Positions 17,034 to 40,639 of a stretch of DNA of 64,000 nt are shown here, in pieces. Source of the DNA: an uncultured Gammaproteobacteria bacterium (GTDB lineage Bacteria; Patescibacteriota; Microgenomatia; CAZETR01; Amesbacteraceae); assembly GCA_964502885.1 (NCBI GenBank), contig CAZCXU010000001.1, positions 93,352 through 157,351 of the forward strand, in the 5' to 3' direction. A program made the translations under genes and the position numbers. The first letter of the stretch is position 1; every line of letters begins with the position of its first letter. Under the pieces are notes generated by a model. The model was not told the DNA's origin. It saw only the letters and a program-made list of their open reading frames with translations, and did not search any database.

Positions 17034-17321
17034 TTAATGATGATTAATTTCTTCAAGTAATATGAGCGGAAGTTTGAGCAAATGATCCTTTTCTTCCTGA
17101 TAAGGGTCGGAGAAATGTTCATCTGTAGAGTGTGTTTCCACTTCGCGGCGAAGCTCTTCTGTGCTTTTGTGGAGGACCTGCCCAGCCCATTGCCAAAGCG
17201 GGTCAGCGTCTGTTTTGAACTGATCAAAATTATGACAGGAATTACAGATTTCAATTACGGCGTTTTCCAGACTGCTGACGACAGATGGATTTATGTAGTC
17301 AGGGTAGGCAAAAGTGTTCAT
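17034..17321 (-). CDS. Hypothetical small protein in the T4SS-like operon
   Basis: 95-aa ORF, acidic, translationally coupled to the VirB4 stop. Confidence 0.3.
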   Translation of the reverse strand: MNTFAYPDYINPSVVSSLENAVIEICNSCHNFDQFKTDADPLWQWAGQVLHKSTEELRREVETHSTDEHFSDPYQEEKDHLLKLPLILLEEINHH

Positions 17322-19832: not shown

Positions 19833-19839
19833 ACTTTTT

Positions 19840-20931
19840 TTAGGTTTTTCCGTGAATAATAACAGGGCTAATAATACTGCCTTTGGCTTGAATAGAAACC
19901 GGGTCAAAAGTTAAACCTTCCTTTTCGGCGATGACGTTGTAAGTTCCGGCTGGCAAGGGAATGGCAATTTGGAACTGACCGAGACGATTGGTTCTTAGGG
20001 CCCGTGCAGGAATACCTGTCTTGGTATCAATAATCTCTACAGTTGTTTGTGCTAACGGCTGGGAAGCTGCATCTACAACCATGCCGGTGAGAATATTCGG
20101 ACTGGCAGGATTGGGAAGCTGAGTGGTGACTGTAGCAGATGGGGCTGAAGGAATATTTACAGGTTTGGGAAGCGGGGGAGTGTTAGCAACAACAGCTGAA
20201 ACACCAGAGGAGGTGAGAATTGGTGAGGTAGGAGTGGTGGGTGTAGCTAAAACTGTTTGTGGTGACGCTTCGGCGTGGGGTGTGCCTGCCGATGAGAAAG
20301 AGGTTGAGATGGTTGGAGTTGAGGTGGAATTTTTAACTGGAGATGTAAAGACTGGTTGGGCGCGTGCAGGGGAAGTGGGGATAGGTGCAGAAGAAGGGGC
20401 AGATGTAGGGATAATGGGGGGAACAGTTGAATTAGGAGCGGGTGTGGGAACAATGGAGGAAATGGCTGAGTTAGGAGTAGTTGATGGAGGTAGAGTTTTT
20501 GCGGTGGACATCTGCGGTTCAATTTTTATGGCAGCAGGAATTGGTGCCGGAACGGTGGTGACTGGTTGAGGTGTAGGTGGCGACGGTGGAGCGGCTGTTG
20601 CAGTGGGTGTGATTGGTGGGGGTGGGGCAAGGCTCGCAACGATTTCGTCAGAGATCCAGACATACTCAGTGGGAGAATAGATGGCTTTAAAAAAAGCGAC
20701 GAGCCAAGTGGTAAAGGGTCGATTGTTGATAGGGATAAAGGCCATGAGTGCACCCGTGGTGATGGAAATAAAAACCAGCGGGTATTTGATTATGGGGATT
20801 AATTGGAGACGGAAAATGAGCACCCCCACAACAATGCCTCCTGCCAGCTGGAGAAATTGCTTGAGGGTCATATCGCCCACGAGACGGAACTCGTAGGAGG
20901 AAATATTTTGCGGGACAGGGTGGTTATCCAT
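19840..20931 (-). CDS. PrgI/TcpE-like (VirB3-analog) two-TM protein with Pro/Thr-rich linker and C-terminal carboxypeptidase-regulatory-like beta domain
   Basis: N-terminal SSYEFRLVGDMTLKQFLQLAGG followed by two TM helices. A long PT-rich low-complexity region. The C-terminus reads GMVVDAASQPLAQTTVEIID...YNVIAEKEGL. Confidence 0.4.
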   Translation of the reverse strand: MDNHPVPQNISSYEFRLVGDMTLKQFLQLAGGIVVGVLIFRLQLIPIIKYPLVFISITTGALMAFIPINNRPFTTWLVAFFKAIYSPTEYVWISDEIVASLAPPPPITPTATAAPPSPPTPQPVTTVPAPIPAAIKIEPQMSTAKTLPPSTTPNSAISSIVPTPAPNSTVPPIIPTSAPSSAPIPTSPARAQPVFTSPVKNSTSTPTISTSFSSAGTPHAEASPQTVLATPTTPTSPILTSSGVSAVVANTPPLPKPVNIPSAPSATVTTQLPNPASPNILTGMVVDAASQPLAQTTVEIIDTKTGIPARALRTNRLGQFQIAIPLPAGTYNVIAEKEGLTFDPVSIQAKGSIISPVIIHGKT

Positions 20932-24020: not shown

Positions 24021-25751
24021 TTAGGATGTACCACCTGCGGGAGGGACAGGTCTTCGAATGTTGGCTTCTTTGGCTTTGGAGACTTGCTGACCAGCCGAAG
24101 TCAATTGTCCCATGGTGTCTTTGGCCATCTTTTCAACAAAGTCAGAAGGATCTACAGACTTACAGAACATGTTCTTAACCATGGTTGCTATGTTGGGGGC
24201 GAATGACATGGCCCCTACGAAAACTGCATATTGGACGAAAATATTACTGGGCATGTCAAATAAGGGAAAGTTGGCTTGGTTGTTAAAAAAGAAGCCTATG
24301 TCTCCGGCGAATCCTGGGACGGGAGTGCGAGTGTCAAACCCTGCATTAATTAGAATTGCTAAGAGAGCATATGTCACAAAAATTGAGGCATTGCCGATGA
24401 GACAAAGAAGCCATTTTTTAAATCCACCAAAATCAGATTTCTTCGATGGGATAATATCGAAAATAATTATTAGCGGGCCGGCGACAACCAGAAGATTAAA
24501 AGTAATAAAGGCGACCACAAATTGACCAATAATTCTGGCCCAGACGTAAATTGACCAAAGGAAGAAACCAAGAATGAAACCAGCTATGAGAACAACCACT
24601 CCTCCAGAAGCAAGATTAAGCAGTGCAGCTAGAACTATAGTGAGAATTATCAGTACTATGGAAACAACTATCCAAAAGGCAAGGAAATGCCAGACAAAAT
24701 CAAAACCGCCTCCAGCTAAGGTGGACATAGCAAGCGGCAAGTCAGTTATAATTGTCATGCCGATAGCTGTTTGGGCAAAATAAAGCATGCCAATAATTGC
24801 GGAAATGGCTAAGTACATCAGGTCAATTACGAAGCCGGCAATGGCGTATGAAAAGAGAACCAACACAATAGATATGGCAATGCGGGGAATAACCATTTGA
24901 ATTGTTACCGAGACTTGCGGAGATATTTTTGAACGGAACATAACCATAAAACCAGCAATGATGATAATCAGGGTGGTAATTAATAGTGCGATGTTTCGAG
25001 TGGCGATCCAAAATGCTCGGGTAGGAGAGTCTGTCGTTCCGGTACCACCCAAGCCAAGTCTTTCGTAACCACTTCCTTGCGCAAACGTGTCCGAGACAAT
25101 GTTGAGTTTTGAAGCAAGTTGTTTAGTTTCAGACCAGGCTGAGGGGAGGGTGTCAATTTGTGATGAGATATAGTAGGTAAGCTTGAGTACTCCAATATAA
25201 CTTTGACCTATGAATCCATATTTATTAACAAATGCCAGATCAGAAGAAGAAAAATTTTGAGTGACGAGCATGCTGCGGGCAAGATCTATCGCTGTGAGTA
25301 AATCAGTGATGTTTTGCAAAAGGGCTGCTGGATCAGGAGAAGATATAACTGAGGGAAATAACATCGAAGAGAGAGAGTTGAGGATCCAGTTTACTTGAGC
25401 GTAGGTGTAGCGCTCACCAAAAATTTCGTCGGGATTTGTATTGTCGAAAACTTTTTGCTGGAACTCCTGAATTGAAGGATTGTACCAAGGGTGTGGTGTT
25501 ACTTCGGCGAAGAACAAACGGGAGATTTCGTAGATGAGATAGGAGCAACGTGCTGCATCACCGAAAGGGTTGGGGGAAATGGCTTGACAGGCAGCATCTG
25601 CCTGAGCGCACAGCGGCTCGGCGGGATCACAGGTCGGTTGGGCAAGAACCGGTGATGGTGTGATAAATACTGTTAACCCTATGAATAGAAACGAAAGGGT
25701 AAAAAGGTATTTTTTAATCAGCATTGAAAGATGTTTTGTCATGGAAGACAT
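24021..25751 (-). CDS. Polytopic membrane protein with signal peptide and Cys-containing periplasmic N-domain; VirB6/TrbL-like candidate
   Basis: Signal peptide, then a roughly 230-aa extracytoplasmic domain, then about 8 TM helices with large loops, consistent with VirB6-like topology. Confidence 0.35.
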   Translation of the reverse strand: MSSMTKHLSMLIKKYLFTLSFLFIGLTVFITPSPVLAQPTCDPAEPLCAQADAACQAISPNPFGDAARCSYLIYEISRLFFAEVTPHPWYNPSIQEFQQKVFDNTNPDEIFGERYTYAQVNWILNSLSSMLFPSVISSPDPAALLQNITDLLTAIDLARSMLVTQNFSSSDLAFVNKYGFIGQSYIGVLKLTYYISSQIDTLPSAWSETKQLASKLNIVSDTFAQGSGYERLGLGGTGTTDSPTRAFWIATRNIALLITTLIIIIAGFMVMFRSKISPQVSVTIQMVIPRIAISIVLVLFSYAIAGFVIDLMYLAISAIIGMLYFAQTAIGMTIITDLPLAMSTLAGGGFDFVWHFLAFWIVVSIVLIILTIVLAALLNLASGGVVVLIAGFILGFFLWSIYVWARIIGQFVVAFITFNLLVVAGPLIIIFDIIPSKKSDFGGFKKWLLCLIGNASIFVTYALLAILINAGFDTRTPVPGFAGDIGFFFNNQANFPLFDMPSNIFVQYAVFVGAMSFAPNIATMVKNMFCKSVDPSDFVEKMAKDTMGQLTSAGQQVSKAKEANIRRPVPPAGGTS

Positions 25752-25797: not shown

Positions 25798-28700
25798 TTA
25801 GGGAAAGGGAAACGGGCAGCTGGGAGCAATCCATTCCCATTTGCCTTGAAGGCCAGGATTTGCGGCGGTACCGTCTCCCAACGCATATAGATCGGATTCG
25901 GCGGTGGGAATGCAGGAGTCACCCACCAGGTATATGGCAGAGAATACCCGTACTCCTCCGTAAGTATTTATTTCAGATGCGCAACGGGATCTGATGGCAT
26001 TTACGGTAAGGAGGTGACCGGTGATTTGCTGATCGAAGTTGTTTGGTGTGTTGTATTGACCGACGTGAACGCCAAAATCTTCTACTGGAGTGTTGGCTTC
26101 GTAATTGCTGGCGTCCGATTCGTTTAACCAAATCAATAGTGAAAGTCCAGGATTTACGCCGGCGGCGTCTGCGCGTGTGACGACGTCGTTGTAGCAAAGT
26201 TCTGCGAAAGTGCCATCCGGAAAATTGGTCCAGCGCCTGGCGATGTCTATGTAGTTAGTGCGATCTACACAGGGTGTGTTGGTTTCGGGAAGATTGGTGT
26301 TGCAGTTTATGCCGCCCGGTGAGTCTATAGGGCTGACTGATCCTACAAAGCCTTTTGGTCGGAGGGCGCGTTGGAGATTGAGGTTTTCACGGGTGGGGAC
26401 ACCAAGAATGTGATCGGCAAGGCTGCCGACCTTGGGAAAATAAAAAGCTCCCCCAGAAGTGCGCAAACCTCCTCCGATACCACCAGAGGCTACATTACGT
26501 CCTGCCGTGACACGGGGATTGATCAAATTTTGCACCTGGCCGTTGTAGGCTGCACTAGTTCCTGCCGGTATGGATACGTCTCTGTTGTTGGTGATGTCGT
26601 AATCGGTTTGTGTGATCTGCCAAATGCAGGAGTAGCCCTGGGATGCCATTGCCTGACAGGCTGTTTCGGTTAATTGGTTAGAACAAATTCCAAGATCTCG
26701 GGGTGAGGTGGTGGTGCAAGCTTCATATGTGCCAGTCAGGGGGAGTTTGGGCATCCAGCGACGAAGGACTGAGTTTGGGCCTGCCACAAGGATGTCATAG
26801 AGCTTTTCGATGTATGGTGTTTTTACAAAAGGATTAACCCGTGCAGCTGATCTCAGGTTGCGGGTTGGCCAGACAGGGCAGTGAGGAGGACGAGGGGCCA
26901 GTGCGGGAGCGGCACGAACAACACGCCACTCACAGTATGGTGACATTCCGGCGGCAGTACACCCAGTTTGGTCCAGGGCCGAACAAACAGAAGCATAACT
27001 ATCGTATCCAGATCTGCTGCGGCAGGCATATTCATCAGTGGGGGCACAACATATTTCGCCAGCATTACCACAATCCAGATCAATTATTTCCCGATTTTCG
27101 CCACATCCGTTTGGACCGGGCGCGCGGCAGTCGTATGTGGAGCTGGCATGGTAGCACTCGCTAATCCAAGGACAGCGTTGTCCGATTTGAATCGTGCAGC
27201 ATTCGCCCCCAGGAAGCTGGTCATTGCATTCATCTCCCTCCAGGGAACAGGGTCTATTGATGCAGTTGCCGGCACCGGCGGGACACGGGTTTGCGTCACA
27301 GCCAATTACGAGTCGGGGTGTGTAGCGGAAGAGCTGACGATATGTAAGATTTCCGTTTAGGACGTTTCCCAGCAGGCGATCTCCGGATGAAGTACGAGTT
27401 TCGGCTTCGTCGCAAGTAAAGTCTGATGGAACATATAACGCAGCGGGCGCAGGTCCGTCAATAATTTCCGTGTTGCGAATGACAGTTCCGCCACCAGAGC
27501 AGCCCCTGAGAATGGAGCCTGCAAAATATCTTTGGCAGAGAACAACTGTTTCGTCGGAGTGTCCTTCGGATGCTCCAAAACCCTGATGGCGGGCAACTCT
27601 TTGGGAAAACATATTGCTATTTTCAGAACTGAACAAGGGAGCGTGTGTGGCGGCAGGGGGTGTTGGCGTTGGAGTAGGTGTGGCCAGAACAACAGTTTGA
27701 CTTGAATAACTGGATCCGGCGAGACGAATACGAATGCTGCCGGGGAGACCGCGACTGACAAACCACTGGCTACTTCCGCCGTAGCGATAATATGAATGAG
27801 GCCATGTAGGTATGATGCCTTCGTAATAGCGTTGCACACTGACACTGGGGTCAACATAGTTACTGAGTGGACCGTAGTCTTGGTTTGTTGTCGGATCAAA
27901 AACATGGAATTGGTTCCAAAGCGCTTCACCCATACCTGGCAAACCGTAATAAACATCTATCAGGTTGTAAGCTGGCAAGTAAAAAGCCCGGAGATAGTCT
28001 GCCGGATTTGTTGATAAAACAGGAGTGGGGATTGGGGGCGGGGGGGGAGGGGCGGTGGGAGGAACAATTACCGGATATGGCTGATGCAAAGCTTGGACGA
28101 GACTTGATAAAGGAACAGCTGATTTCATGTGCGGGAAATAAAGCCGTGAATCAAAGCGGCCTGAAATAAGGGTGGGAAAACTGAGGCCAATAGTGAGAAT
28201 TCGGCCATCGATGTCTACGGGTTGAGCTTCCGGAATAACACTTGCTGTAAACTCACTCACAGTGTCCTCAAGAGTTGAGTAATTGATGTATTTATGTGTC
28301 CAGGTTTCGGTATCGAAATTGCTGGCCACCCAACTAAGGCGGCGACGCAGGGTGCTGCTGACGCAGGGTTCTGCGAGGTCGAGACGTAAAGCTGCAGTGA
28401 TGTTTCCGATGCGACTCAGCAGGTTTCTGCCTAGGGAAAAAAGCATGTTTACATCATCAAGGTTGTTGGCTATCACAGTAAAACCGTAATTTAAAAGTAC
28501 ATTTCTAATTCCGATTGGGTTGAATTGATCGCCCGGAAGTAAGGCAATGTTGACAAGTGCGCCACCAAAATCCTGCATATTATTCATGCCAACTCGACGG
28601 ATGATATCGATCATTCTGACAACATCAAGGAAACTGCCAAATGAGTTTGTAAATATTGCTTCCAGAGCGTCTAAAACATAATCAAAGTCGATGTTCCGCT

Positions 28701-29460
28701 GACAGGAAACCAGATAGTTGTGGTACTGTGACCCTACGTTGTTGCTGGCAACGGTTTCCTTTATGTCATCACGGAAGTCTTTTGGATATAATTTGTTTAT
28801 TGGCCCTGAATAAGAGGTGATGCGTTTAGTGTCGGCCGGATCGAAACCGTTTAAGGGAAGTTTTTCTGACTGGAATACCGTACCATTCAGATACCAATTA
28901 AGATATTGGTTAACTTTGTAATCGTCGGGAATTGCAACTTCGGTCTGGCCGAAAATGGGGAGTTGGGAGTTGGTCGCATTGATAGCGACTGTCCAGCGAA
29001 CTCGTTTGACGTAGCAAATGTCTGTGGATCCTGACTCACAGAGATAGTCGTCAGAACGATCGCCGCCCTCCTGGGTTAGGGGGACACTGATGGGGTTGGC
29101 CGGGAGGACTGAAAGACCACACATGTCAATAACGTCTGAGACCTCATCGTAACCTGAGACATTTAGGGATTTGGCACAATGAAATGAGAGATAGACTTTA
29201 TTGGGATCGTCCGGGGCTTCGGGGACTTTTGCGGGAATGAGGACATCGCAAGGGTTTCCAGGATAGGGTCTTAGCGGATGAAATTCCGGATCGTTTCCGG
29301 TATTTGTGTGGCAAGGATAATTAAATGGAGCCGGCCAGGGGTTACGGGTAAAAAATCCGAGAGTGGGGGTCTGGGCGTGAATAAGATTTAGCCATGGAGT
29401 GATGGCAGAAAAGACTGCTACAACAGAGCTTACTACTAACAACTTAACGGTCGGTTTCAT
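25798..29460 (-). CDS. Giant secreted Cys-rich modular protein (1220 aa), putative surface adhesin or tip protein
   Basis: Signal peptide MKPTVKLLVVSSVVAVFSAITPWLNLIHA. Poly-Pro linkers (PPTAPPPPPPIPTPV, TPTPTPTPP). Dense Cys modules (CDANPCPAGAGNCINRPCSLEGDECND...CCAPTDEYAC). It sits directly upstream of the pilin array. Confidence 0.55.
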   Translation of the reverse strand: MKPTVKLLVVSSVVAVFSAITPWLNLIHAQTPTLGFFTRNPWPAPFNYPCHTNTGNDPEFHPLRPYPGNPCDVLIPAKVPEAPDDPNKVYLSFHCAKSLNVSGYDEVSDVIDMCGLSVLPANPISVPLTQEGGDRSDDYLCESGSTDICYVKRVRWTVAINATNSQLPIFGQTEVAIPDDYKVNQYLNWYLNGTVFQSEKLPLNGFDPADTKRITSYSGPINKLYPKDFRDDIKETVASNNVGSQYHNYLVSCQRNIDFDYVLDALEAIFTNSFGSFLDVVRMIDIIRRVGMNNMQDFGGALVNIALLPGDQFNPIGIRNVLLNYGFTVIANNLDDVNMLFSLGRNLLSRIGNITAALRLDLAEPCVSSTLRRRLSWVASNFDTETWTHKYINYSTLEDTVSEFTASVIPEAQPVDIDGRILTIGLSFPTLISGRFDSRLYFPHMKSAVPLSSLVQALHQPYPVIVPPTAPPPPPPIPTPVLSTNPADYLRAFYLPAYNLIDVYYGLPGMGEALWNQFHVFDPTTNQDYGPLSNYVDPSVSVQRYYEGIIPTWPHSYYRYGGSSQWFVSRGLPGSIRIRLAGSSYSSQTVVLATPTPTPTPPAATHAPLFSSENSNMFSQRVARHQGFGASEGHSDETVVLCQRYFAGSILRGCSGGGTVIRNTEIIDGPAPAALYVPSDFTCDEAETRTSSGDRLLGNVLNGNLTYRQLFRYTPRLVIGCDANPCPAGAGNCINRPCSLEGDECNDQLPGGECCTIQIGQRCPWISECYHASSTYDCRAPGPNGCGENREIIDLDCGNAGEICCAPTDEYACRSRSGYDSYASVCSALDQTGCTAAGMSPYCEWRVVRAAPALAPRPPHCPVWPTRNLRSAARVNPFVKTPYIEKLYDILVAGPNSVLRRWMPKLPLTGTYEACTTTSPRDLGICSNQLTETACQAMASQGYSCIWQITQTDYDITNNRDVSIPAGTSAAYNGQVQNLINPRVTAGRNVASGGIGGGLRTSGGAFYFPKVGSLADHILGVPTRENLNLQRALRPKGFVGSVSPIDSPGGINCNTNLPETNTPCVDRTNYIDIARRWTNFPDGTFAELCYNDVVTRADAAGVNPGLSLLIWLNESDASNYEANTPVEDFGVHVGQYNTPNNFDQQITGHLLTVNAIRSRCASEINTYGGVRVFSAIYLVGDSCIPTAESDLYALGDGTAANPGLQGKWEWIAPSCPFPFP

Positions 29461-29484: not shown

Positions 29485-29880
29485 TTAGGAGCAGCCGATG
29501 CCTCTGGCTATACAGATATCAAATATTCCCAAATTGATACCGAGGAAAGTGCCAATAAGGTTGACTATTACGAATGCTGACAAGGTGATTATTAATCCTG
29601 CAAGAGAAAAGATAATTGTATTTCTTGCTTGTTCGGTTTGGGCTTTGTCTGCTCCTGCAGCTAGATACTTGTATCCACCAATAACCAGAAATCCTAAAGA
29701 AATGAAAACAAAAAGGCTGATGATTGCGGTAATCGCAGCGGCTATTACTCTATTTAGGTTCTGGAGCATTGCGGGCGGAGTAGGGTTTGCAATTGTTGTT
29801 TGAGCTTGAGCGACAGTAGGCCATGCTAATACGAATACAGATGCGGCCAACGTGATCAGTGAGCGAATTGTTGTGTACAT
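29485..29880 (-). CDS. T4SS pilin-like protein (VirB2/TrbC-like two-helix), paralog 1
   Basis: Signal peptide, then TM1-GADKAQTEQARNTI-TM2. It ends in a CxxxxxC tail. Confidence 0.55.
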   Translation of the reverse strand: MYTTIRSLITLAASVFVLAWPTVAQAQTTIANPTPPAMLQNLNRVIAAAITAIISLFVFISLGFLVIGGYKYLAAGADKAQTEQARNTIIFSLAGLIITLSAFVIVNLIGTFLGINLGIFDICIARGIGCS

Positions 29881-29960
29881 CTGTTTTTAATATAGGGCAA
29901 AAAAACAACCCCGGCAAGGGCCCGGGGTTGTTTTGGCCATTTCTGGCCGGTTCCAAAAAC

Positions 29961-30326
29961 TTATGAACCAATCGTTGCGAGATTGAATTCGATAAGGTTG
30001 ACGTTGAAGAGAACACGCAGAATGTACAGTAAGGCGTAAGCAGAGAAGACGATTGCCAAACCGATTAAGGCGGCAGTGATCTTCTTGCGAGCTTTTTCGG
30101 TACCTTCTTTGTCTCCACCAGCGAGAATCCATTGTAAACCACCCCAAAGTAGGATGATAAAGGAAGCTACGCCAGCGATACCCAACATAAGATTCAAGAT
30201 GGTTCTCAAGAAATCTGATGGGGTATAGTTCTTCAAAGTGTCGAAACGTGTATCGACGTTAGCCACGCTACCGACATCCGAGTCTGGAATAGGAAGAGCA
30301 AGTTGTGCAAGTAGTCTCATCATCAA
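29961..30326 (-). CDS. T4SS pilin-like protein, paralog 2
   Basis: LGIAGVASFIILLWGGLQWILAGGDKEGTEKARKKITAALIGLAIVFSAYALLYILRVLFNVNLIEF. Confidence 0.6.
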   Translation of the reverse strand: MMMRLLAQLALPIPDSDVGSVANVDTRFDTLKNYTPSDFLRTILNLMLGIAGVASFIILLWGGLQWILAGGDKEGTEKARKKITAALIGLAIVFSAYALLYILRVLFNVNLIEFNLATIGS

Positions 30327-30379
30327 ATCTCACCGCCTTTCAGTGGAAAGTATAACATAAAATCAGTGCCGGAGGCTAA

Positions 30380-30754
30380 TTAGAGGGGTGTGATAGTGTA
30401 CTCAATGAGATTGACGTTGAAGAGGGTACGGATGATATACAGAATCGCATAGGATGAAAATACGATAGCCAATCCTATGAGAGCATAGCTGATTTTGCGG
30501 CGAGCTTTCTCGACTGCGTCTTTGTCGGATCCAGCGGTAATCCATTGAAACCCACCTATTAGGAGGAATAAGAATGCGGCAACACCTGACAGGCCCAGGA
30601 GGGCAAGAATCGACGTGCGGATATAGCTGGCGGGCTGAATATTGTAGGTGTTAGCAAAAGGAGAGTTGGGGTCGCGTAGATCTATTAATTGCTGGGCATC
30701 AATAGAAGGAGGAAAGAGAAGCAAGCTTGCCAGGAGAGCGAGAATCAGTTTCAT
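30380..30754 (-). CDS. T4SS pilin-like protein, paralog 3
   Basis: Signal peptide plus ...WITAGSDKDAVEKARRKISYALIGLAIVFSSYAILYIIRTLFNVNLIEY. Confidence 0.6.
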   Translation of the reverse strand: MKLILALLASLLLFPPSIDAQQLIDLRDPNSPFANTYNIQPASYIRTSILALLGLSGVAAFLFLLIGGFQWITAGSDKDAVEKARRKISYALIGLAIVFSSYAILYIIRTLFNVNLIEYTITPL

Positions 30755-30782
30755 GTGAGTTCGAGTTTATAAGAAAGGGTTG

Positions 30783-31454
30783 TCAGTTACAAGGGATGCA
30801 GGTAATCAGGCCACATCCAGTCGTGCCGAGCGGAGTCCAAGAGCCGTTTGATTCGCATCGGAAACATGGACCATTTATGACAGATGTTGATCCTAACGTG
30901 CCTGCCGGAATGCATCTTCCAGTTGCAGATCCGCCACAGGCACACATGCCGGATGGTGGGGTGATGTCGCAGCCGGGATCTGTGGGGTTAGTACAAGGAA
31001 TCCCTGAATCCCAGGGATCACTACCAGGAGCAGGTGGGTTGGGGTCGTTGATCTGAGAGGAAATTTCCCCGATATGTCCGAGGTTGAATTGAATTAAATT
31101 GATGTTAAAGAGGGTGCGGAGAGCAAAAAGGAAACTGTAGGCTGAAAAAACAATTACCAGTCCAATTAAAGCCTGAACAACCTTTCTGCGGGCTTTTTCA
31201 ATTGCGTCTTTATCACCACCAGCCAGTATCCACTGAATACCGCCGATAAGCAGGAATATAAAAGAAAAAACTCCTGCCAGTTGGAGGAGAAGGTTTAGAA
31301 GTGTGGTCAATATCATTGATGGGGTGAGGCTGCGAATTGTCGTAAAATCCGGATCGACGTTTTGTTCTATGCCAATGTAGTCTTGTGCTTTTGCGGTTGC
31401 AGGCATTAAGAACATAGAAATAACTGTGGAGATGTGAACCAGGTGGTTTCGCAT
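30783..31454 (-). CDS. T4SS pilin-like protein, paralog 4, with C-terminal Cys-rich extension
   Basis: Pilin core (...WILAGGDKDAIEKARRKVVQALIGLVIVFSAYSFLFALRTLFNINLIQF) followed by a 90-aa tail carrying about 11 Cys. Confidence 0.6.
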   Translation of the reverse strand: MRNHLVHISTVISMFLMPATAKAQDYIGIEQNVDPDFTTIRSLTPSMILTTLLNLLLQLAGVFSFIFLLIGGIQWILAGGDKDAIEKARRKVVQALIGLVIVFSAYSFLFALRTLFNINLIQFNLGHIGEISSQINDPNPPAPGSDPWDSGIPCTNPTDPGCDITPPSGMCACGGSATGRCIPAGTLGSTSVINGPCFRCESNGSWTPLGTTGCGLITCIPCN

Positions 31455-31460
31455 GGGTAA

Positions 31461-31802
31461 TTAGAGGTTTCTTAAGGTGAATCCAATCGGATTTACATTA
31501 AATAGGACACGCAATATATAAAGAATGGCGTAGGAAGAAAAGACGATAACTAAACCTATCAGCGCGTTGATGATTTTACGGCGGGCTTTGTCGATACCAT
31601 CTTTGTCGCCACCGGCAGTAATCCACTGAACTCCACCCCAGAGCAGATAAATAAAGAAGCCAACACCAGCAAGACCCAAGAGAAGACTGATGGCTGTAGC
31701 GACATAAGCGGAGGGTTTGAGGTTTGTAATGTAGTCGTAGTTGCTGTCACCAGAATTGACAGTGATGGGAACAAATTGAGCCAATAGGTGTTGGTTGATC
31801 AT
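31461..31802 (-). CDS. T4SS pilin-like protein, paralog 5
   Basis: ...WITAGGDKDGIDKARRKIINALIGLVIVFSSYAILYILRVLFNVNPIGF. Confidence 0.6.
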   Translation of the reverse strand: MINQHLLAQFVPITVNSGDSNYDYITNLKPSAYVATAISLLLGLAGVGFFIYLLWGGVQWITAGGDKDGIDKARRKIINALIGLVIVFSSYAILYILRVLFNVNPIGFTLRNL

Positions 31803-32131
31803 AGTTCAGGAACGTTGAGGGAGAGAATCGAGACGCCAAATAACACTTCGATTATCCAAATGATTACGAATGAAGAAAGAAGTATGGCAATTCCAATAAG
31901 GGCATTACGAATACGGTGTGTGGCTTTCTGGACGCCTTCCTTATCTCCGCCGGCGGTGATATAGGCAAAACCACCCATTAACAAGTTGACGAAAAAATAA
32001 ATTCCACTTAATCCCATGACGGCATTTAAGACGTTTCTTAGTAGCAACTGGACCATGCTGTCAGCCTCGTTGACGTTGATATTTCCGATTTGACTGTTGA
32101 CCGCAGGGTTGACGATGGTAAACAGATACAT
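31799..32131 (-). CDS. T4SS pilin-like protein, paralog 6
   Basis: ...YITAGGDKEGVQKATHRIRNALIGIAILLSSFVIIWIIEVLFGV. Confidence 0.55.
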   Translation of the reverse strand: MYLFTIVNPAVNSQIGNINVNEADSMVQLLLRNVLNAVMGLSGIYFFVNLLMGGFAYITAGGDKEGVQKATHRIRNALIGIAILLSSFVIIWIIEVLFGVSILSLNVPEL

Positions 32132-32134
32132 ATT

Positions 32135-32554
32135 TTAAGGTGAAGCAACAATTAACTGCAATCCGAGACGAAAGATGTCCAATCCCAGGAATCGGCCAAT
32201 GATTCCAATTAGTCCGTATGATCCAACAACTATGAACATACCCAATATGGAAGTGGAAAGACGTTTTTTGCTTACCTCCACGGTATTTTTATCGCCACCG
32301 GCACCAATCCACTGCATTCCGGAAAGGACTATTTGATAGATGAACCAAAGTGACGCGACTATAGTGAGTAAACCGAGGATAGAAGAAACAAATTTTTCCA
32401 ACATATCTCCGGGCCCTCCACCTGTGCCAGTCATAAAAAGTCCTGAATGTCCAAATGTACCCAGAGGTCCGACACCGTCAATGTTTCCCAAGTTGACTTG
32501 AGCTAAAAGGTTTCTCATGGGGTGAATATCCGTGGTGAAATAAGCGTGTTCCAT
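32135..32554 (-). CDS. T4SS pilin-like protein, paralog 7
   Basis: ...WIGAGGDKNTVEVSKKRLSTSILGMFIVVGSYGLIGIIGRFLGL. The real start may be an internal Met. Confidence 0.5.
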   Translation of the reverse strand: MEHAYFTTDIHPMRNLLAQVNLGNIDGVGPLGTFGHSGLFMTGTGGGPGDMLEKFVSSILGLLTIVASLWFIYQIVLSGMQWIGAGGDKNTVEVSKKRLSTSILGMFIVVGSYGLIGIIGRFLGLDIFRLGLQLIVASP

Positions 32555-32874
32555 CCATTAATACCATACAGGAAGAGGCCGATGACGCTGGCGATGACTA
32601 ATGATCCGGTGACTATGGCTAGTCCCAGAAAGGATTGCCAAATGCGCTCGTGGGCTTTTTGGACCATTTTGGGGTCGCCATTTGCGCTTAAGTATCCATA
32701 CCCTGCCAAAATTAGATTGATCAATGTGTATATACCAGCCAGGATTATGGAGAGTCGGATGAGGCTGCTAAGAATTAAGATAAGACCTTCGCCCTGAGTG
32801 CCAGCTGCGAGTCTGGGATTGTTGTATCCGGATGTCCCAAATGGATTGTCGATAGTGCCGAATGCTCCTAACAT
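32515..32874 (-). CDS. T4SS pilin-like protein, paralog 8
   Basis: ...YLSANGDPKMVQKAHERIWQSFLGLAIVTGSLVIASVIGLFL. Confidence 0.5.
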   Translation of the reverse strand: MLGAFGTIDNPFGTSGYNNPRLAAGTQGEGLILILSSLIRLSIILAGIYTLINLILAGYGYLSANGDPKMVQKAHERIWQSFLGLAIVTGSLVIASVIGLFLYGINGWNTLISPRIFTP

Positions 32875-32880
32875 AGTTTT

Positions 32881-33231
32881 TTAGACGAATGGCGGGTCAA
32901 TTAAGTTTACACCTGTAATGGTAGATATAATCTGAAGTATAAAATAAGCACTAATGACTAGCAATAAGCCCAGAACTCCATAAGTGACGGAATTTTTTCC
33001 TTGCTGAACACGTTGTGGAGGGTTGATTTGTCCGCCAAAGATAATTAGTAAGTAACCTCCGTGGATGATGAGATAAATGAAATAAAGACTGGCGATTGCC
33101 ATGGCATTGAGGAGTAAGAGAGAGACAATATCGCCCAATTGACCACGGAAAGGGGAGGTGGCCCCAACGTTGGGATGGTTGACGAAAAACTTGTCTTGCA
33201 AGTTTACTGGCGGGTTAAGAAGCTGAAACAT
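32881..33231 (-). CDS. T4SS pilin-like protein, paralog 9 (divergent)
   Basis: Two hydrophobic helices flanking a ...GGQINPPQRVQQGKNSVTYGVLGLL motif. Confidence 0.45.
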   Translation of the reverse strand: MFQLLNPPVNLQDKFFVNHPNVGATSPFRGQLGDIVSLLLLNAMAIASLYFIYLIIHGGYLLIIFGGQINPPQRVQQGKNSVTYGVLGLLLVISAYFILQIISTITGVNLIDPPFV

Positions 33232-33234
33232 TTT

Positions 33235-33540
33235 TTAGATTAAGTTGGTGCGGGTAATAGTTTGAATTATTTGCAAAATAAAGAAGGCACTAACTACAGT
33301 AAGGAGGCCAAGAAGCGCGTTGGTGATCTGTCTTTTTATCTGCATGAGTTTGGCTTCGTCGCCCAGGCTTCCCATATATGCGAATCCCGCTGTAATCAGA
33401 TGGTAAAGAAAATAGAGTCCGGCTCCGGCCATGGCAAAGAGAATAGTGCGAGAGGCGATTGTTGAGGGTAGTGTGGCACTGGTCGAGAATCGGCCGGAGG
33501 TGTGGATGAAATCGGGAATCTGAGCTAAATGTGAGTTCAT
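33235..33540 (-). CDS. T4SS pilin-like protein, paralog 10
   Basis: ...YMGSLGDEAKLMQIKRQITNALLGLLTVVSAFFILQIIQTIT. Confidence 0.5.
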   Translation of the reverse strand: MNSHLAQIPDFIHTSGRFSTSATLPSTIASRTILFAMAGAGLYFLYHLITAGFAYMGSLGDEAKLMQIKRQITNALLGLLTVVSAFFILQIIQTITRTNLI

Positions 33541-34055
33541 TAGAGTCGGAAACCAAATAAGGAGAGACCTAAGACGTTAAATCCTAAGAAGTTGAGAACG
33601 ACGATGGCGGAAGTGATAAGAATTAAACCTAGTACTGCCGAGGTGAGTGTGTCTTTGGCGGAATTAATTTTTTTAGGGTCGCCTTCAGCGGTGGCAATAG
33701 TGAAACCCGCATATACGATCAGAAGAAGAGTAGCCAGGCCGGCCAAACCAACTGCCCAAGTAGCAATAATCCAGACTGTATTTTGAGTATCGGAGGTGGG
33801 TATACAACCTAAGGCTGTCCTAATAGCACCAGTGCCTGCACAAAAAGGATTTTGAGCATTACATTCTGCTACAGTGTCGCAACAAAGATGTTCCATAGGG
33901 TTTGCACATTGAGGGCGGGCGACACAGGGACTGTAAGTACCCCATATTGTTCGAGAACGGATTTCACACCAGCTGTAAGTTGGATCTGGGAGGGATAATA
34001 CTGACGTGACAAATAAAAGTGTTGTGATAAGTATTCTAAGTGGTGCAGATTTCAC
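33540..34055 (-). CDS. T4SS pilin-like protein, paralog 11, with N-terminal Cys-rich secreted module
   Basis: Signal peptide, then a roughly 70-aa module with 10 Cys, then the pilin core (...FTIATAEGDPKKINSAKDTLTSAVLGLILITSAIVVLNFLGF). Confidence 0.5.
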   Translation of the reverse strand: MKSAPLRILITTLLFVTSVLSLPDPTYSWCEIRSRTIWGTYSPCVARPQCANPMEHLCCDTVAECNAQNPFCAGTGAIRTALGCIPTSDTQNTVWIIATWAVGLAGLATLLLIVYAGFTIATAEGDPKKINSAKDTLTSAVLGLILITSAIVVLNFLGFNVLGLSLFGFRL

Positions 34056-34080: not shown

Positions 34081-35868
34081 ATGATAATTGGTATGACGAA
34101 AGTGAGACTTACAATAATATGTTTAATAACGTTTTTATGGATAACCATGACATCTTCGGTGCGGGCAGAGGAGTGTGATAATCCAGGAAGTTTGTCTGAT
34201 CCAGTAACAATAACCAGATGCATAGGCAAATTTAATGGAATATTGGAAGCGATTTCGAAAGCAAATTCTAACAACAAGCAGCAGCTGCAGGGGATGCAGC
34301 AACAGATTGCCAAACTACAAGCGCAAATAAAAGCTTTGGAGATGCAAATCGGGGTGCTACAAAAAGGAATATTTGAAAGAGAAGTACGGGTGGGGGTGAA
34401 ACAGGAACTGTTGTCTGCGAAAGTGAGACGTGACTATGTAGTGAAACGAGATCAGCCAATATTGCAGGTGTTGTTTGCTGCTGATGGGGCAGCGGATTTT
34501 TTTCAAGATATGTTTTTGCGGGAGAAGTTGGCGCGGCTGGACCATGCATTGATTGTGTCTGTGGGGGGGGAGATTAAAAATTTGAATGATCAGGCGCAAA
34601 CTTTATCGTCCCAAAAACAAAAACTGGCGAGTCTTCAGGCGCAAGTAGATAAGCAGGCGGATTTTCTACAGGCGGAAGTCGAAAAAGCCAGTAAATATGA
34701 GTCTGATTTGGGAGGGAAGATCTCAGCATTGACCGCTAGGCAACAGGAATTGCTGGCGGAAAAGACTGGGACTATCGCCACTTCGGTCGGAGATGTACCA
34801 CTAGCTGACGATCCGGCCGCGAGACCGGATTACAATCCAGGTTTTTCACCGGCGTTTGCCATGTTTTCGTTCGGGGCGCCACACTTTAAAGGGATGAGCC
34901 AATATGGGGCTTTGGGTAGGGCCAAGGCAGGCCAGAGTTATGAGACCATTCTTAAGGCTTACTATGGTGATGTGAGGATTGTGGATGTGGGAACGGGTTT
35001 TTCGATAAGGACAAGTGCAGGAACAATGCCAATGGAGGATAGATATATGAAGGGGATAGCGGAGATGCCGACGTCGTGGGCAAATGACGGGGGAATGGAG
35101 GCGTTGAAGGCGCAAGCGATAGCGGCCAGAAGCTATGCGTTGAGTTATGTGGGGTGGCGAATGGGTAAACAATCAGCCGGAGGTTCGATTTGTGTGACGG
35201 AAGCGTGTCAGGTATGGAGATCGTCGAAAGCAAACAGTCCCGGAGCGTGGGGAAGTGCTGTTGATCAGACTAAGGGAAAGATTTTGGTGAGTAACAAAAC
35301 GGGAGAAATTATTAGCGCCTGGTATGCGAGTACGTCGGGAGGTTATCAGGAAAGTTATACCACCTTGGGCCATACTACTCCTGGATTTTGGGACACGACA
35401 TCAAATTGGACGAGGTGGGCAGATGGAGCGTATGAGGTAAAAGCAGGAAGTCCGTGGTTTTATAAAGGCTGGTACAAGACCAGGACAGGAAAAACCTGTG
35501 GCAGGGCACATCCGTGGCTTAACCAGGAGGAGTTCTCAGATATGGTGAATGCTGCCATTGTGGTGGAAAGAGGTGGAGATGTGTCGGGAATTTTTCCTGA
35601 AGATGTGAGGAGTTGTTGGGGTGGAAGTGACAATCCATGGTCAAAAGACCGGTTGGCACAGGAAGCGGACAAGCATGGTGGCCGGGTGACGAGTGTCGGT
35701 AGTGTGAGAGTGGAGCATGGAAACAATGGTATTACAAACAAGGTAATACTTTCGACAAATAGAGGAGAAGTTACGATTACCGGAAGTAATTTCAAACGAG
35801 CATTTAATTTGCGCGCCCCAGGAGCTCTAGCTTTGAAGAGTGGACTTTTTAATATCGAAAAGAAGTGA
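34081..35868 (+). CDS. SpoIID/LytB-domain peptidoglycan hydrolase with N-terminal signal/TM and coiled-coil region
   Basis: Coiled-coil Q-rich N-terminus. SpoIID/LytB motifs ...MEALKAQAIAARSYALSY...AWYASTSGGYQESY.... Confidence 0.55.
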   Translation: MIIGMTKVRLTIICLITFLWITMTSSVRAEECDNPGSLSDPVTITRCIGKFNGILEAISKANSNNKQQLQGMQQQIAKLQAQIKALEMQIGVLQKGIFEREVRVGVKQELLSAKVRRDYVVKRDQPILQVLFAADGAADFFQDMFLREKLARLDHALIVSVGGEIKNLNDQAQTLSSQKQKLASLQAQVDKQADFLQAEVEKASKYESDLGGKISALTARQQELLAEKTGTIATSVGDVPLADDPAARPDYNPGFSPAFAMFSFGAPHFKGMSQYGALGRAKAGQSYETILKAYYGDVRIVDVGTGFSIRTSAGTMPMEDRYMKGIAEMPTSWANDGGMEALKAQAIAARSYALSYVGWRMGKQSAGGSICVTEACQVWRSSKANSPGAWGSAVDQTKGKILVSNKTGEIISAWYASTSGGYQESYTTLGHTTPGFWDTTSNWTRWADGAYEVKAGSPWFYKGWYKTRTGKTCGRAHPWLNQEEFSDMVNAAIVVERGGDVSGIFPEDVRSCWGGSDNPWSKDRLAQEADKHGGRVTSVGSVRVEHGNNGITNKVILSTNRGEVTITGSNFKRAFNLRAPGALALKSGLFNIEKK

Positions 35869-36913: not shown

Positions 36914-38773
36914 ATGGAATTAGCCGTGGGAAAAATTTCCGGTAATATGGGTGACAATTTTTGGGGGCAGGTACTGACTTATGCTCCCAATGAAGAAGAC
37001 TTGAAAAATGTCCGTGGAGAGTTGGTTGTGGTATTGGGTATAGATGGGGAGGGTGGGCAAATAGAAACAATGAAAAAAGGGAGGGAGGTATTGAGTGAGA
37101 TTCAAAATGGGTATTTCTCAGGCAAGAAAGAGTCTAATTTTGAATCTCTGAAGGAAGCGGTGGAAACTGGAGTTTCAGGAGATGCGAGGGTGCAGGTCGG
37201 GTGTGTGGCTTTAGCCAGAGATTGCTGGCAAGTTGTGGTTTGGGGCGGAATGGGTGTATGGGTGCAGAACGGAACTAAAAGTGGGTATGTGGTAAGGCCG
37301 GGGAGGGCTTCGGGAGATTTGATTGCTGTGAGCGGAAAGTTGAGTGTGGGAGGTGTGGTGGTTTTGGGCAATCAAGTTTTTTTTGCGGGAATTTCTGAAA
37401 GCGAACTTCCGAAATTTGTTATCCGTGGGGATGTGGACTTTGCCGCTGAGGCAATGAGGGGGGTTTTACAGAAAGCGAGTGGGGTTGGAGGTGGGTGGGT
37501 GGGGGTTGTTTTGAAACAAAATGCTCATAGGGAGACAAAGAAATTTGAGGTAGTAGATAAACAAAAAGAACTTGTTTCTGAAGGGGCTTTTCGGCCAAGC
37601 TATCCAAGCTATGGACAACGACTGCTTAACAAATTCTTGATGGCGGCATCGAGGATTTATGTCAAAAGGGGAGACAGAGAAGATCAGCGGCGAAAAGTGC
37701 GTTATCTGGGGCTAGGGCTAGTGGCTACACTTTTGATAATGGTGGGGGTGGGACATTTTACCGCGAAGAAAAATGATAATTCAAAAAGCGAATCAGTTTT
37801 TTCGTTTGTCTCGGTTGAAGAAAAAATAAATGAAGCCGCTGAGTTGGCCGATCTGAATCCAGCCAGAACTAAGGAGTTACTGATTGATGTGAAGAGTGCG
37901 ATGAGCAATTTGAAAGGAAATAAGAATGATGTTCAAAAAATAGGGGTATTGGAGACCCGATGGAATGAAATCTGGCAAAGAGCTTCCGGGATAGTAAAGT
38001 TGGAAGTGAAAGAAGTTGTGGATCTGACCTTGGTAAGAGAGGGGATGCAGGGGCGGCGGATGGTGAAAGTAAAAGATAAGTTGTTTGTGTTGGATGGGGA
38101 TTTGGGCAGAGTAGTGGAAGTTACATATGCTAACGGATCGGCTAAGGTGGTCGGTGGAGGAAATCCAATCGCACAGGCGACGTTGATTGCCAATTATCTG
38201 GAACGTGTTTTTGTGATGACCCCCAACGGAATGGTTGAGATCGGAGAATCGGTGGTGAAACTGAAGCCTGGTGAAAGTTGGGGAGCTATTGCTGATATGA
38301 AGTTGTTTGGAGGAAATGTGTATTTGCTGGATAGCGAAAAAGGGGAGGTGTGGAGACATCAGGTAAAAGGAGCTGAGTGGGGAAGCGCTCAAAAGTGGCT
38401 GGCGGATGGGAACGGGGGTGCGGCAATTGTGGGCGCAAAATCTATGTTGATAGACGGCAGTATTTATGTAATAGGAAGAAATGGAATGAGTAAGTTTACT
38501 CGGGGAATAGAAGACAGAGTTGCGGTGGAGGGTTTGGATGAAATGTGGGGCGATGGGGTGGTGGCTTGGACAGGAGAAGATGACGAGAATATATATGTGC
38601 TGGATGGTGACAAAAAGCGGATTGTGGTGATTAGTAAACAGGGGGCGTATAAAAAACAATTTGTAGCAGATGTGTTCGCGGGAGCCAGCGATTTAGCTGT
38701 TGATGAGGATCGAGGCGAGATTTTTGTACTTTCCGGTGGTAAAGTCTGGGCTGCAAAGTATGAAAGTAACTAG
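36914..38773 (+). CDS. Membrane protein with N-terminal PP2C/SpoIIE-like (possibly degenerate) phosphatase domain and C-terminal repeat domain
   Basis: LGIDGEGGQ (resembles DGHGG), SGDARVQV (resembles GDSR) and SGDLIAVSGKL motifs, then a central TM helix and a beta-rich C-terminal half. Confidence 0.3.
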   Translation: MELAVGKISGNMGDNFWGQVLTYAPNEEDLKNVRGELVVVLGIDGEGGQIETMKKGREVLSEIQNGYFSGKKESNFESLKEAVETGVSGDARVQVGCVALARDCWQVVVWGGMGVWVQNGTKSGYVVRPGRASGDLIAVSGKLSVGGVVVLGNQVFFAGISESELPKFVIRGDVDFAAEAMRGVLQKASGVGGGWVGVVLKQNAHRETKKFEVVDKQKELVSEGAFRPSYPSYGQRLLNKFLMAASRIYVKRGDREDQRRKVRYLGLGLVATLLIMVGVGHFTAKKNDNSKSESVFSFVSVEEKINEAAELADLNPARTKELLIDVKSAMSNLKGNKNDVQKIGVLETRWNEIWQRASGIVKLEVKEVVDLTLVREGMQGRRMVKVKDKLFVLDGDLGRVVEVTYANGSAKVVGGGNPIAQATLIANYLERVFVMTPNGMVEIGESVVKLKPGESWGAIADMKLFGGNVYLLDSEKGEVWRHQVKGAEWGSAQKWLADGNGGAAIVGAKSMLIDGSIYVIGRNGMSKFTRGIEDRVAVEGLDEMWGDGVVAWTGEDDENIYVLDGDKKRIVVISKQGAYKKQFVADVFAGASDLAVDEDRGEIFVLSGGKVWAAKYESN

Positions 38774-39203
38774 CAAAAAAGCATATTTTAATTATGAGTT
38801 GGGTGAGCGGATGGAGGCGGGTATTGTGTTGACGGGAGCTGAGGCAAAATCGGCGTTTTTGGGACAAATTGATTTGGATGATGCGTATATTAAAATCCGG
38901 TCGGGGCAGCATAAGGGAATGGAAGCCTGGGTTACCAACATGAAGATATTTCCGTACAAGCATGCGGATAACACCAATTATGATCAGGCGCGGATGCGAA
39001 AACTTTTATTGCATCAAAAAGAGATTCTGGAATTGATGAACAAAATGAAGCAAATGAACAGAATTGTCGTGCCGGTTGCCGCATATACTAAAAGCGGGAG
39101 AATAAAAATTGAGTTGGCGCTGGCTAGAGGCAAAAGAGTTTATGAGAAGAGAGAGAAGATTAAGAAGCGAGATCAGGAAAGGGATGCAGAAAGATTGCAA
39201 TGA
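38760..39203 (+). CDS. smpB: SsrA-binding protein SmpB
   Basis: MKVTSKKAYFNYELGERMEAGIVLTGAEAKS..., the canonical SmpB N-terminus, with a basic C-terminal tail. The ORF-track start at 38700 is an upstream extension. Confidence 0.85.
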   Translation: MKVTSKKAYFNYELGERMEAGIVLTGAEAKSAFLGQIDLDDAYIKIRSGQHKGMEAWVTNMKIFPYKHADNTNYDQARMRKLLLHQKEILELMNKMKQMNRIVVPVAAYTKSGRIKIELALARGKRVYEKREKIKKRDQERDAERLQ

Positions 39204-40166: not shown

Positions 40167-40240
40167 CAAATATATTATGTGTGTCGCGTCTGACGCGATC
40201 ACCTTGCAAACACGTCTTCTTGCGAAGCCGCGTTTGACGC

Positions 40241-40639
40241 GGTGGAGATGGAGGGAGTTGAACCCTCGTCTGTGTAAGTTTTGAAAACCGGTTTATTACA
40301 AGTTTGTTTGGTATAAAGCTGCCAACAGCTGCTGGTTAGTTGGTCTTTTTTCGATTTAGGATAACCAAAGCCGATCGAAAGCATTCCGATAGGGTTTATC
40401 ACTAAAGAAAAGTTATCGGAAAAACAATTCTTGAGTGTCGGCTTGTCCCTACTTAAGCGTAAAGCATGCGAGGGGCAAACTGAGTGCTGAAGATGGAGTT
40501 GAAAGGATTGACCTTTGCAACAAAACCTTCAACGCGTGCTTTTAAGTTAGCACTTTGTTTTGAATCTGTTTTACGAGTGTGATTCGAACTCGACTTGCCG
40601 ATATTTCAAGGTGCTTATACATCGAAACCCGTCATCCCC
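40241..40639 (-). ncRNA. ssrA: tmRNA (ssrA)
   Basis: On the minus strand the 5' end is GGGGAUGACGGGUUUCGAU... and the 3' end is ...GACGAGGGUUCAACUCCCUCCAUCUCCACC, giving a tRNA-like T-arm and a 7-bp acceptor stem (GGGGAUG/CAUCUCC). Length about 400 nt. smpB lies about 1 kb upstream. Candidate tag frame: ...GCA AAG GUC AAU CCU UUC AAC ... UAC GCU UAA. Confidence 0.55.

Follow-up and report, generated by a model that had tools for sequence, protein, structure and literature searches.

Arrays of VirB2-like pilin genes have been described in the type IV secretion system (T4SS) loci of Patescibacteria. In Southlakia epibionticum ML1, Wang et al. reported in 2023 a pilin array inside a T4SS locus, SEML1_0006-0019 (PMC10633639). 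The pilin series of this cluster is essential for epibiotic growth (PMC10633639; PMC12857230), and a 2025 review counts six VirB2-like pilins in it (PMC12857230). Quiñonero-Coronel et al., also in 2025, searched 3,035 genomes with the Pfam models PF18895 and PF04956. The positive assemblies, 383 in all, contained 441 arrays, each of 2-11 pilin genes, which were especially common in Microgenomatia and Saccharimonadia, were located near dnaA, and had a mean within-array identity of 25% with a maximum of 54% (PMC12102498). In the same survey detectable VirB6 was scarce in Microgenomatia, and an antigenic or host-range role was suggested for the arrays by analogy with Bartonella and Anaplasma (PMC12102498); we found no statement in it on conserved order or orthology of array members. 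Here we describe an array of eleven such genes, placed one after the other on the minus strand at positions 29485-34055 of a 64,000-nucleotide (nt) stretch of contig CAZCXU010000001.1, which we call the window.

The array is firmly identified as the VirB2-like pilin array of a chromosomal, oriC-proximal Patescibacterial T4SS, in the genome of an ultrasmall bacterium resembling Candidatus Amesbacteria (Microgenomatia). The kind of system is already known, and the locus matches the published description in every respect tested. The survey (PMC12102498) counts as an array two or more VirB2-like genes in tandem or with a single non-pilin gene between them; here eleven follow each other, a virB4 gene is within about 20 coding sequences (CDS), the host is a Patescibacterium, and a scan of 30 large open reading frames (ORFs) of the window revealed neither a relaxase nor a VirD4/TraG coupling-protein domain. 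As in the Southlakia and survey arrays, the tandem PF18895 genes lie near virB4, PrgI/VirB3, TrsD and dnaA and have low identity to each other; the window array differs in reaching the upper end of the published sizes (2-11) and in its maximum within-array identity, 62% here against the 54% reported. Positional orthology is the main addition of this analysis to the published arrays. Considering that order together with the age of the differentiation among its members, our preferred explanation, to which we give a probability of about 60%, is that the array is an old set of differentiated T4SS subunits, made together and belonging to one envelope structure, and not a set of interchangeable variants. 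The paralogs are numbered from low to high coordinate, pilin 1 to pilin 11; transcription runs from pilin 11 to pilin 1.

Order and orthology of array members in related loci

Related loci were collected by a motif scan with the subfamily formed by pilins 2-5 (the M subfamily), keeping one genome per species, and 79 were obtained. The closest ones are metagenome-assembled genomes of Candidatus Amesbacteria, with 65-75% identity to pilin 2, and the rest belong to Shapirobacteria, Woesebacteria and other Microgenomates. With a profile of the window's eleven hairpins we detected 595 pilin ORFs, including the eleven of the window and five in L001, a contig that carries identical pilin genes; only short Logan contigs, from SRR22184563 and SRR22184561, have such identical genes. 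Each pilin ORF of the related loci was then assigned to its best-matching window paralog, and the reciprocal best hits (RBH) were counted per locus.

In 13 loci of Amesbacteria level the best matches follow the order 11-10-9-8-7-6-M-1, where M corresponds to one to six copies of the subfamily of pilins 2-5. The trio 9-8-7 was found in that order in nearly all 79 loci, pilin 9 being always upstream of 8-7, and when all order pairs were considered 1588 were concordant and 186 discordant. The widest conservation is that of pilin 8, whose RBH were found in 73 of the 79 loci, followed by pilin 2 (65), pilin 7 (63), pilin 9 (61), pilin 11 (42), pilin 6 (23), pilin 10 (19), pilin 1 (17), pilin 5 (15) and pilin 3 (10); pilin 4 had a RBH in a single locus and is, as judged from this count, lineage-specific. 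Pilin 10 has a positional orthologue in the Amesbacteria-level loci, where pilin 1 also keeps its terminal position. Seven of the eleven positions (11, 10, 9, 8, 7, 6 and 1) have one-to-one orthologues whose order is conserved across Amesbacteria, and copy-number variation and turnover were restricted to the subfamily of pilins 2-5 (1-6 copies) and to the type of pilin 11, which occurs in 1-3 copies with variable ectodomains of 70-489 amino acids (aa).

Orthologues at the Amesbacteria level were mostly 35-75% identical, a degree of divergence at which saturation of synonymous sites is expected, while the different orthogroups inside the window share 21-36%. The best conserved orthologues are those of pilin 2, with up to 75% identity; those of pilin 8 were 39-64% identical in the Amesbacteria loci, compared with 27-36% for pilin 8 against the other ten paralogs of the window. 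Since orthologues resemble each other across genomes more than the orthogroups do within the window, the duplications must predate the divergence of these genera. N-terminal motifs specific for each orthogroup were also kept in the orthologues, FG.I.NPF in pilin 8, GIGPLG in pilin 7 and NPA.N..IG in pilin 6.

The first-pass annotation of this DNA had considered eleven copies to be unusually many, and this impression did not hold. The largest same-strand tandem run per locus had a median of 6 and a mean of 7.0 genes, with a range of 6-13 (six genes in 34 loci, seven in 9, eight in 13, nine in 9, ten in 4, eleven in 2, twelve in 1, and at least thirteen in 1, at a contig end). Because the arrays of relatives reach these sizes, and those of the closest Amesbacteria have 8-13 genes, eleven copies is a high but ordinary number for the clade; the published range also includes it (PMC12102498). 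In two relatives, 12 and at least 13 genes were detected with the array-derived profile. The survey threshold (i-Evalue < 0.001) would probably miss pilin 7 (0.0019) and pilin 10 (0.0027), so published array sizes are likely underestimates.

Packing and divergence of the eleven genes

The ORF list of the window has no gene between the eleven ORFs, whose lengths from pilin 1 to pilin 11 are 131, 121, 124, 223, 113, 110, 139, 119, 116, 101 and 171 aa. Pilin 11 (33540-34055, on the minus strand like all the others) is the first transcribed and encodes a signal peptide, a Cys-rich N-terminal ectodomain and the T4SS_pilin hairpin in 171 aa; its PF18895 score is 37.4 bits and its transmembrane (TM) segments by hydropathy are at residues 4-23, 93-125 and 135-169. 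Pilin 10 (33235-33540; 101 aa) has the short leader MNSHLAQ and scores 18.2 bits (E 0.0027), below the cut-off, and pilin 9 (32881-33231; 116 aa; 27.7 bits) has in the alignment a 3-residue loop insertion, GGQINPPQRVQQGK. They are followed by pilin 8 (32515-32874; 119 aa; 20.2 bits, E 6e-4) and pilin 7 (32135-32518; 18.7 bits, E 0.0019). The maximal ORF of the latter is 32135-32554, of 139 aa, but its start is most likely the ATG at 32518 (MRNLLAQ..., 127 aa), because this ATG overlaps the stop of pilin 8 as ATGA and public gene calls use the 127-aa start.

Pilin 6 (31799-32131; 110 aa; 33.4 bits) precedes the M subfamily. Of this, pilin 5 (31461-31802; 113 aa; 33.1 bits) has a 4-nt start overlap with the stop of pilin 6 and is 57-58% identical in protein to pilins 2, 3 and 4; pilin 4 (30783-31454; 223 aa; 34.5 bits) combines the M hairpin with a Cys-rich C-terminal extension of about 95 aa, as delimited by alignment; pilin 3 (30380-30754; 124 aa; 33.9 bits) begins with a signal-peptide-like N-terminus, with a TM segment at 1-21; and pilin 2 (29961-30326; 121 aa) has the highest score, 42.1 bits. 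The array ends with pilin 1 (29485-29880; 131 aa; 26.2 bits, E 8.5e-6), which has a signal peptide and the C-terminal sequence CIARGIGCS. The Cys-rich extensions of pilins 4 and 11 showed no significant similarity to each other or to the large neighbour proteins.

From pilin 11 to pilin 1 the intergenic distances are -1, 3, 6, -4, 3, -4, 6, 28, 53 and 80 nt, and the next gene is 24 nt further on. The first seven junctions, from pilin 11 to pilin 4, are between -4 and +6 nt; at three of them start and stop codons overlap, twice by 4 nt (as ATGA where read) and once by 1 nt. The arrangement is operon-like, with predicted translational coupling in its first half, and the overlaps imply co-translation of neighbours. 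Matches to internal promoter and terminator consensus were no commoner in the array region than in shuffled sequences. The only Shine-Dalgarno (SD)-like sequence of the array (GGTGA) precedes pilin 2, and a terminator-like hairpin with a T-run at 29922-29907 (minus strand), a weak lead, is placed inside the 80-nt gap between pilins 2 and 1.

Pilins 2-5 share 47-62% of protein and 61-70% of DNA identity, and pilins 9 and 10 form a second related pair with 47% protein identity. The longest exact DNA tract common to any pair of paralogs was 14 nt, and shuffled controls reached this length at most; the examination of direct repeats and longest shared tracts revealed no gene-conversion tracts or silent-cassette features among the eleven. 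Pilins 2-5 had been taken at first for recent duplicates, and a check for conversion between copies had been proposed; the identities and the shuffle-level tract mean that they are not recent, and both recent duplication and gene conversion were rejected (DNA identity at most 70%). Inside this subfamily the hairpin core is 65.6% identical and the predicted exposed N-terminus 19.5%.

Taking into account these features, we weighed the proposal that the array is a repertoire for antigenic or host-range variation, that is, alternative versions of one pilin used to change the surface or to attach to different hosts. It was put forward for Patescibacterial arrays by analogy with the VirB2 paralogs of Anaplasma and Bartonella, which also are several tandem virB2-type genes beside one T4SS (PMC12102498). 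The number of M copies that changes from 1 to 6 between related genomes, the divergent exposed N-terminus of pilins 2-5 and the lineage-specific ectodomains of pilin 4 and of the pilin 11 type agree with this proposal. However, for those of Anaplasma and Bartonella a role in antigenic variation or in the range of host surfaces is supposed, whereas here both the order and the identity of most members are kept from genus to genus, with no sign of recent exchange. One-to-one orthologues in fixed order at seven positions in Amesbacteria, a 9-8-7 trio kept across nearly all sampled Microgenomatia, and N-terminal motifs that at the conserved positions are maintained and not hypervariable are all difficult to reconcile with interchangeable versions of one protein, and so are the absence of conversion tracts and silent cassettes, the overlaps that imply co-translation, and promoter-like sites at the frequency of shuffled sequence. 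As an account of the whole array we consider it quite improbable; host-range diversification is plausible for the expandable M subfamily and the pilin 11 type only. The first-pass annotation had offered both antigenic or host-range variation and a heteropolymeric filament: the former fits poorly with positional orthology, operon-like packing and lack of conversion, and the latter fits better.

The pilin family, its hairpin and the proposed assembled structure

PF18895.5 (T4SS_pilin) was the best Pfam match of all eleven paralogs, and its cut-off of 26.6 bits was reached by seven (pilins 2, 11, 4, 3, 6, 5 and 9, with 27.7-42.1 bits). Pilin 1 was 0.4 bit short, and pilins 7, 8 and 10 had 18.2-20.2 bits (E 6e-4 to 3e-3) with the full model covered. 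Several initial observations are borne out by these results: that eleven consecutive minus-strand paralogous ORFs of 101-223 aa are present (ORF list and common best match), that they are VirB2/TrbC-like pilins of a candidate phyla radiation (CPR) genome (family matches, and Candidatus Amesbacteria as the closest loci), and that PF18895 is the accession of T4SS_pilin. The common architecture then described was correct in part. By hydropathy all eleven have two hydrophobic helices with some 10-15 polar or basic residues between them, but a signal-peptide-like hydrophobic N-terminus, ending in an A-Q-type site, was present only in pilins 1, 3, 4 and 11, the other seven having short polar leaders of 5-15 residues, often of ..LLAQ type. 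In the same way, the quoted motif AGGDK(D/E)G.EKARRKI ... LFNVNLIEF occurs in pilins 2-5 and partially in pilin 6, and is not common to the eleven.

In the alignment of the eleven members the loop has two invariant Gly and a near-invariant Asp; family-wide loop identity is limited to G-x-D plus basic residues, and no stretch of 7-10 residues is conserved. The alignment had been suggested as a check for a merely compositional motif, and since the loop Gly is invariant and the Asp nearly so, the similarity is not of that kind. When 1.84 billion representatives were searched with a profile of the eleven, 83,945 representative clusters were matched at E<=1e-3, and 21,137 at the stricter E<=1e-10. 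The pilin family is real and very large. That unrelated small membrane ORFs lie side by side by chance could be thought because the proteins are short and hydrophobic and four of eleven are below the Pfam cut-off; in view of the full-length matches of all eleven to one model, the extent of the profile hits, the loop residues, and the positional orthologues that each paralog has elsewhere, we give this idea practically no weight.

A relation with other conjugative pilins was also looked for. The proteins resemble the VirB2/TrbC/TraA pilins (PF04956) of Gram-negative T4SS in being small two-helix hairpins with a basic loop and in having VirB3/VirB4/VirB6-type neighbours; they differ in that none scores up to the PF04956 cut-off, that eleven differentiated genes take the place of a single one, that a long signal peptide is lacking in most, that the envelope is monoderm-like, and that VirB5, VirB7, VirB9 and VirB10 were not detected. 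Pilin 2 also matches NCBIfam NF045849, a pilin-like conjugal transfer protein, with 24.3 bits (E 1.9e-5); as this is below the cut-off of 40, pilin 2 is not an equivalog of that family, to which Mbov_0395/MMCAP2_0565 of Mycoplasma integrative and conjugative elements (ICEs) belong, but the weak match links the pilins to monoderm conjugation of MPF-FATA type.

Following the positive-inside rule, the basic loop is predicted to be cytoplasmic and both termini to be outside. Loop inside and termini outside is the known topology of conjugative pilins. With the termini outside, the Cys-rich additions of pilin 11 (N-terminal) and pilin 4 (C-terminal) would be extracellular. As for the leaders, the pattern M-x(0-6)-LLAQ was found in 59 of 595 pilin ORFs, among them pilins 2, 5, 7 and 10 and many orthologues in loci L002-L080, and in 1 of 3576 other ORFs, and the full signal peptides of paralogs end with the same ..LAQ/..A-Q site; a common processing site that leaves an N-terminal Gln in the pilins is a possibility.

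In its AlphaFold2 model pilin 2 folds into a hairpin of two helices, H36-68 and H73-106, and between residues 41 and 100 the means of 10-residue blocks are 86-95. Such a shape is compatible with another role, in which the hairpins are membrane-embedded parts of the T4SS conduit in a wall-less or monoderm-type envelope, forming a ring or bundle in their own membrane or a translocon in that of the host, and are not subunits of a filament. The plain two-TM hairpin itself and its best Foldseek match in the PDB, the ATP-synthase subunit c (non-significant, E 1.6), are in line with it, as is the fact that Gram-positive-type T4SSs, kin of the Patescibacterial VirB4, generally lack pili (PMC12102498; PMC10633639). 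Fused proteins give it a further argument. The representative search yielded many proteins with 2-16 hairpin units joined by continuous linkers, and in P0140, P0145, P0180 and P0203 there are 4-16 tandem units in single polypeptides (poly-pilins), which one can imagine more readily as bundles in a membrane than as subunits of a helical filament. On the other side are the sub-threshold but statistically meaningful TrbC/VirB2 match of pilin 2 (E 1.7e-5), the match to a 'pilin-like' Mycoplasma ICE protein, the adjacent VirB6-like gene described below, and the predicted outward termini, some of them with ectodomains, as for surface-exposed pilin ends. Taken together, a membrane-embedded role seems unlikely to us.

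Poly-pilins were also found inside arrays of single pilins, in CPR-type contigs: one of six units in L084 (1777-3435) and one of four units in L083 (10001-11128). This placement indicates that several units work side by side there. Merged gene calls or stop read-through were rejected for the two poly-pilins checked, which are uninterrupted ORFs under translation table 11. The NCBI name of P0291, a fused four-unit relative, is MMCAP2_0565-family pilin-like conjugal transfer protein.

Conserved order, old differentiation and apparent co-translation favour non-redundant subunits over a variation repertoire. In the mechanism that we propose the eleven pilins would be made together as differentiated subunits, none redundant with another, and would be assembled into a single envelope structure associated with the T4SS, probably with the VirB6-like protein as platform and VirB4 as the driving ATPase; this structure would be a heteromeric pilus or stalk. 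VirB6 is generally considered to be the platform on which the pilus is assembled. One subunit would be abundant, most likely from the subfamily of pilins 2-5, and several would be specialised and of low copy; pilin 2 is the candidate for major subunit, because its orthologues are the best conserved, it is the one preceded by the SD-like sequence, and a terminator-like hairpin comes after it. The Cys-rich ectodomains of pilins 11 and 4 could contact the host cell, and lineage-specific change would be confined to pilins 2-5 and the pilin 11 type, where it affects the copy number and the exposed parts (N-terminal or extension regions). Operons of major and minor pilins from type II secretion and type IV pili, such as gspGHIJK and fimU-pilVWXE, offer a functional analogy only: they are ordered sets of differentiated small paralogs that build one filament with one abundant and several low-copy subunits, and they are not homologous to the window pilins, from which they differ in fold and ATPase type. 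The class III prepilin leader (G|F/M-x-x-x-E) of such proteins was absent from all eleven translations, all of which have two TM helices.

Some points weigh against the view of an old set of differentiated subunits. The assignment of distant loci to orthogroups was based on best BLAST hits at 28-40% identity, and the 79 loci are phylogenetically non-independent and biased to Microgenomatia that have the subfamily of pilins 2-5, because they were retrieved through its motifs. PF04956 was matched only below its cut-off of 27.9 bits (25.3 for pilin 2, 21.5 for pilin 4, and at most 16.3 or no match for the others). Fold searches with the hairpin model cannot separate VirB2 from any helical hairpin, and searching the PDB with a sequence profile of the pilin alignment produced chance matches only, with no solved VirB2/TraA sequence among them. 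Filaments have never been observed for a Patescibacterial T4SS. Finally, the copy-number variation of pilins 2-5 and their variable exposed N-termini are also what host-range diversification would produce.

The surrounding secretion locus and its significance

The genes around the array complete the picture of the T4SS, and this neighbourhood is syntenic across the related loci, with the same layout in locus L082. Five to six CDS from the array, all on the minus strand, there are a VirB4-type T4SS ATPase (17318-19183; PF19044 P-loop_TraG, 102.6 bits, and PF12846 AAA_10, 44 bits), a TrsD-like protein resembling the N-terminal region of VirB4 (19161-19907; NF041427 TrsD, E 8.9e-6, and NF045975 VirB4_plasma, E 2.7e-9, both far below the cut-offs), whose counterpart in L082 carries PF26593 TraC-like, and a protein of the PrgI family, VirB3-like, with a C-terminal CarboxypepD_reg domain (19840-20931; PF12666, 33.6 bits, and PF13620, 36.4 bits). 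The genes dnaA (12917-14275) and dnaN (14529-15647) are also in the window.

A polytopic membrane protein of 576 aa (24021-25751, minus strand) had no Pfam or NCBIfam match and adjoins the array in 61 of the 79 loci. It was modelled with AlphaFold2 from a 34-sequence alignment, with a predicted local distance difference test (pLDDT) value of 73.6. Each of its six best Foldseek matches in the PDB is a chain from the R388 stalk complex (TrwJ/VirB5-TrwI/VirB6); the first five have probabilities of 0.90-0.99 and E 0.05-0.12, and the sixth has a probability of 0.57. On this modelled structure we consider it, with moderate confidence, a candidate divergent VirB6, and it could be the 'missing' VirB6 of Microgenomatia, which is reported as scarce by surveys based on hidden Markov models (HMM).

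Between this gene and the array, directly downstream of the latter, a secreted protein of 1220 aa is encoded (25798-29460, minus strand), with a signal peptide, 40 Cys and proline-rich linkers and without Pfam or NCBIfam match. It has the same position in 31 of 79 loci and may be an adhesin or a tip component. At the other end, divergent from the array, a SpoIID-domain protein is encoded on the plus strand (34081-35868; PF08486, 55.1 bits). About 25 nt separate its start codon from that of pilin 11, and this adjacency is kept in 43 of 79 loci and in L082; the protein may fill the wall-remodelling role of VirB1, which is absent from most Patescibacterial T4SS loci.

Other features of the window were noted. 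Halfway along the T4SS block, but on the strand opposite to it, lies the gene for a soluble protein of 926 aa without family match (21182-23962, plus strand); it is present in only 2 of 79 loci and may be a lineage-specific insertion. A gene for transfer-messenger RNA (tmRNA) is found at 40240-40639 on the minus strand (Rfam, 94 bits), with a tag, predicted by ARAGORN, that is unusually long, 27 residues ending in MLYA, and with smpB nearby at 38700-39203. The GC skew of the plus strand is positive in every 2-kb bin (0.04-0.45) of the window, positions 1-64000, whatever the gene orientation, and it has no sign change at dnaA/dnaN (12.9-15.6 kb).

Few machines have been shown to be indispensable to cultivated Patescibacteria in their epibiotic life; the T4SS is one of them, and what is most unusual in it, for a system of monoderm type, is the pilin array. 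The value of this locus is in the conserved order, the orthogroup motifs, the single expandable subfamily, the poly-pilin fusions and a structurally VirB6-like neighbour that HMM surveys missed. A wider generalisation, which we offer tentatively and at less than even odds, is that the T4SS of Microgenomatia has a heteromeric VirB2-type structure whose differentiated hairpin subunits, six or more, form a set of fixed composition and order; 9-8-7 would be its core trio, joined by an expandable major-subunit family, and in some lineages the set would be condensed into poly-pilins of 4-16 units. If this is true, it would be the first heteropolymeric assembly of the VirB2 family, with a logic comparable to that of major and minor pilin sets, and the published 'variation' reading would be wrong for most array members. 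For the Saccharibacteria models that can be cultivated, the prediction is that each position of the array would be individually required and that all the pilins would be co-assembled.

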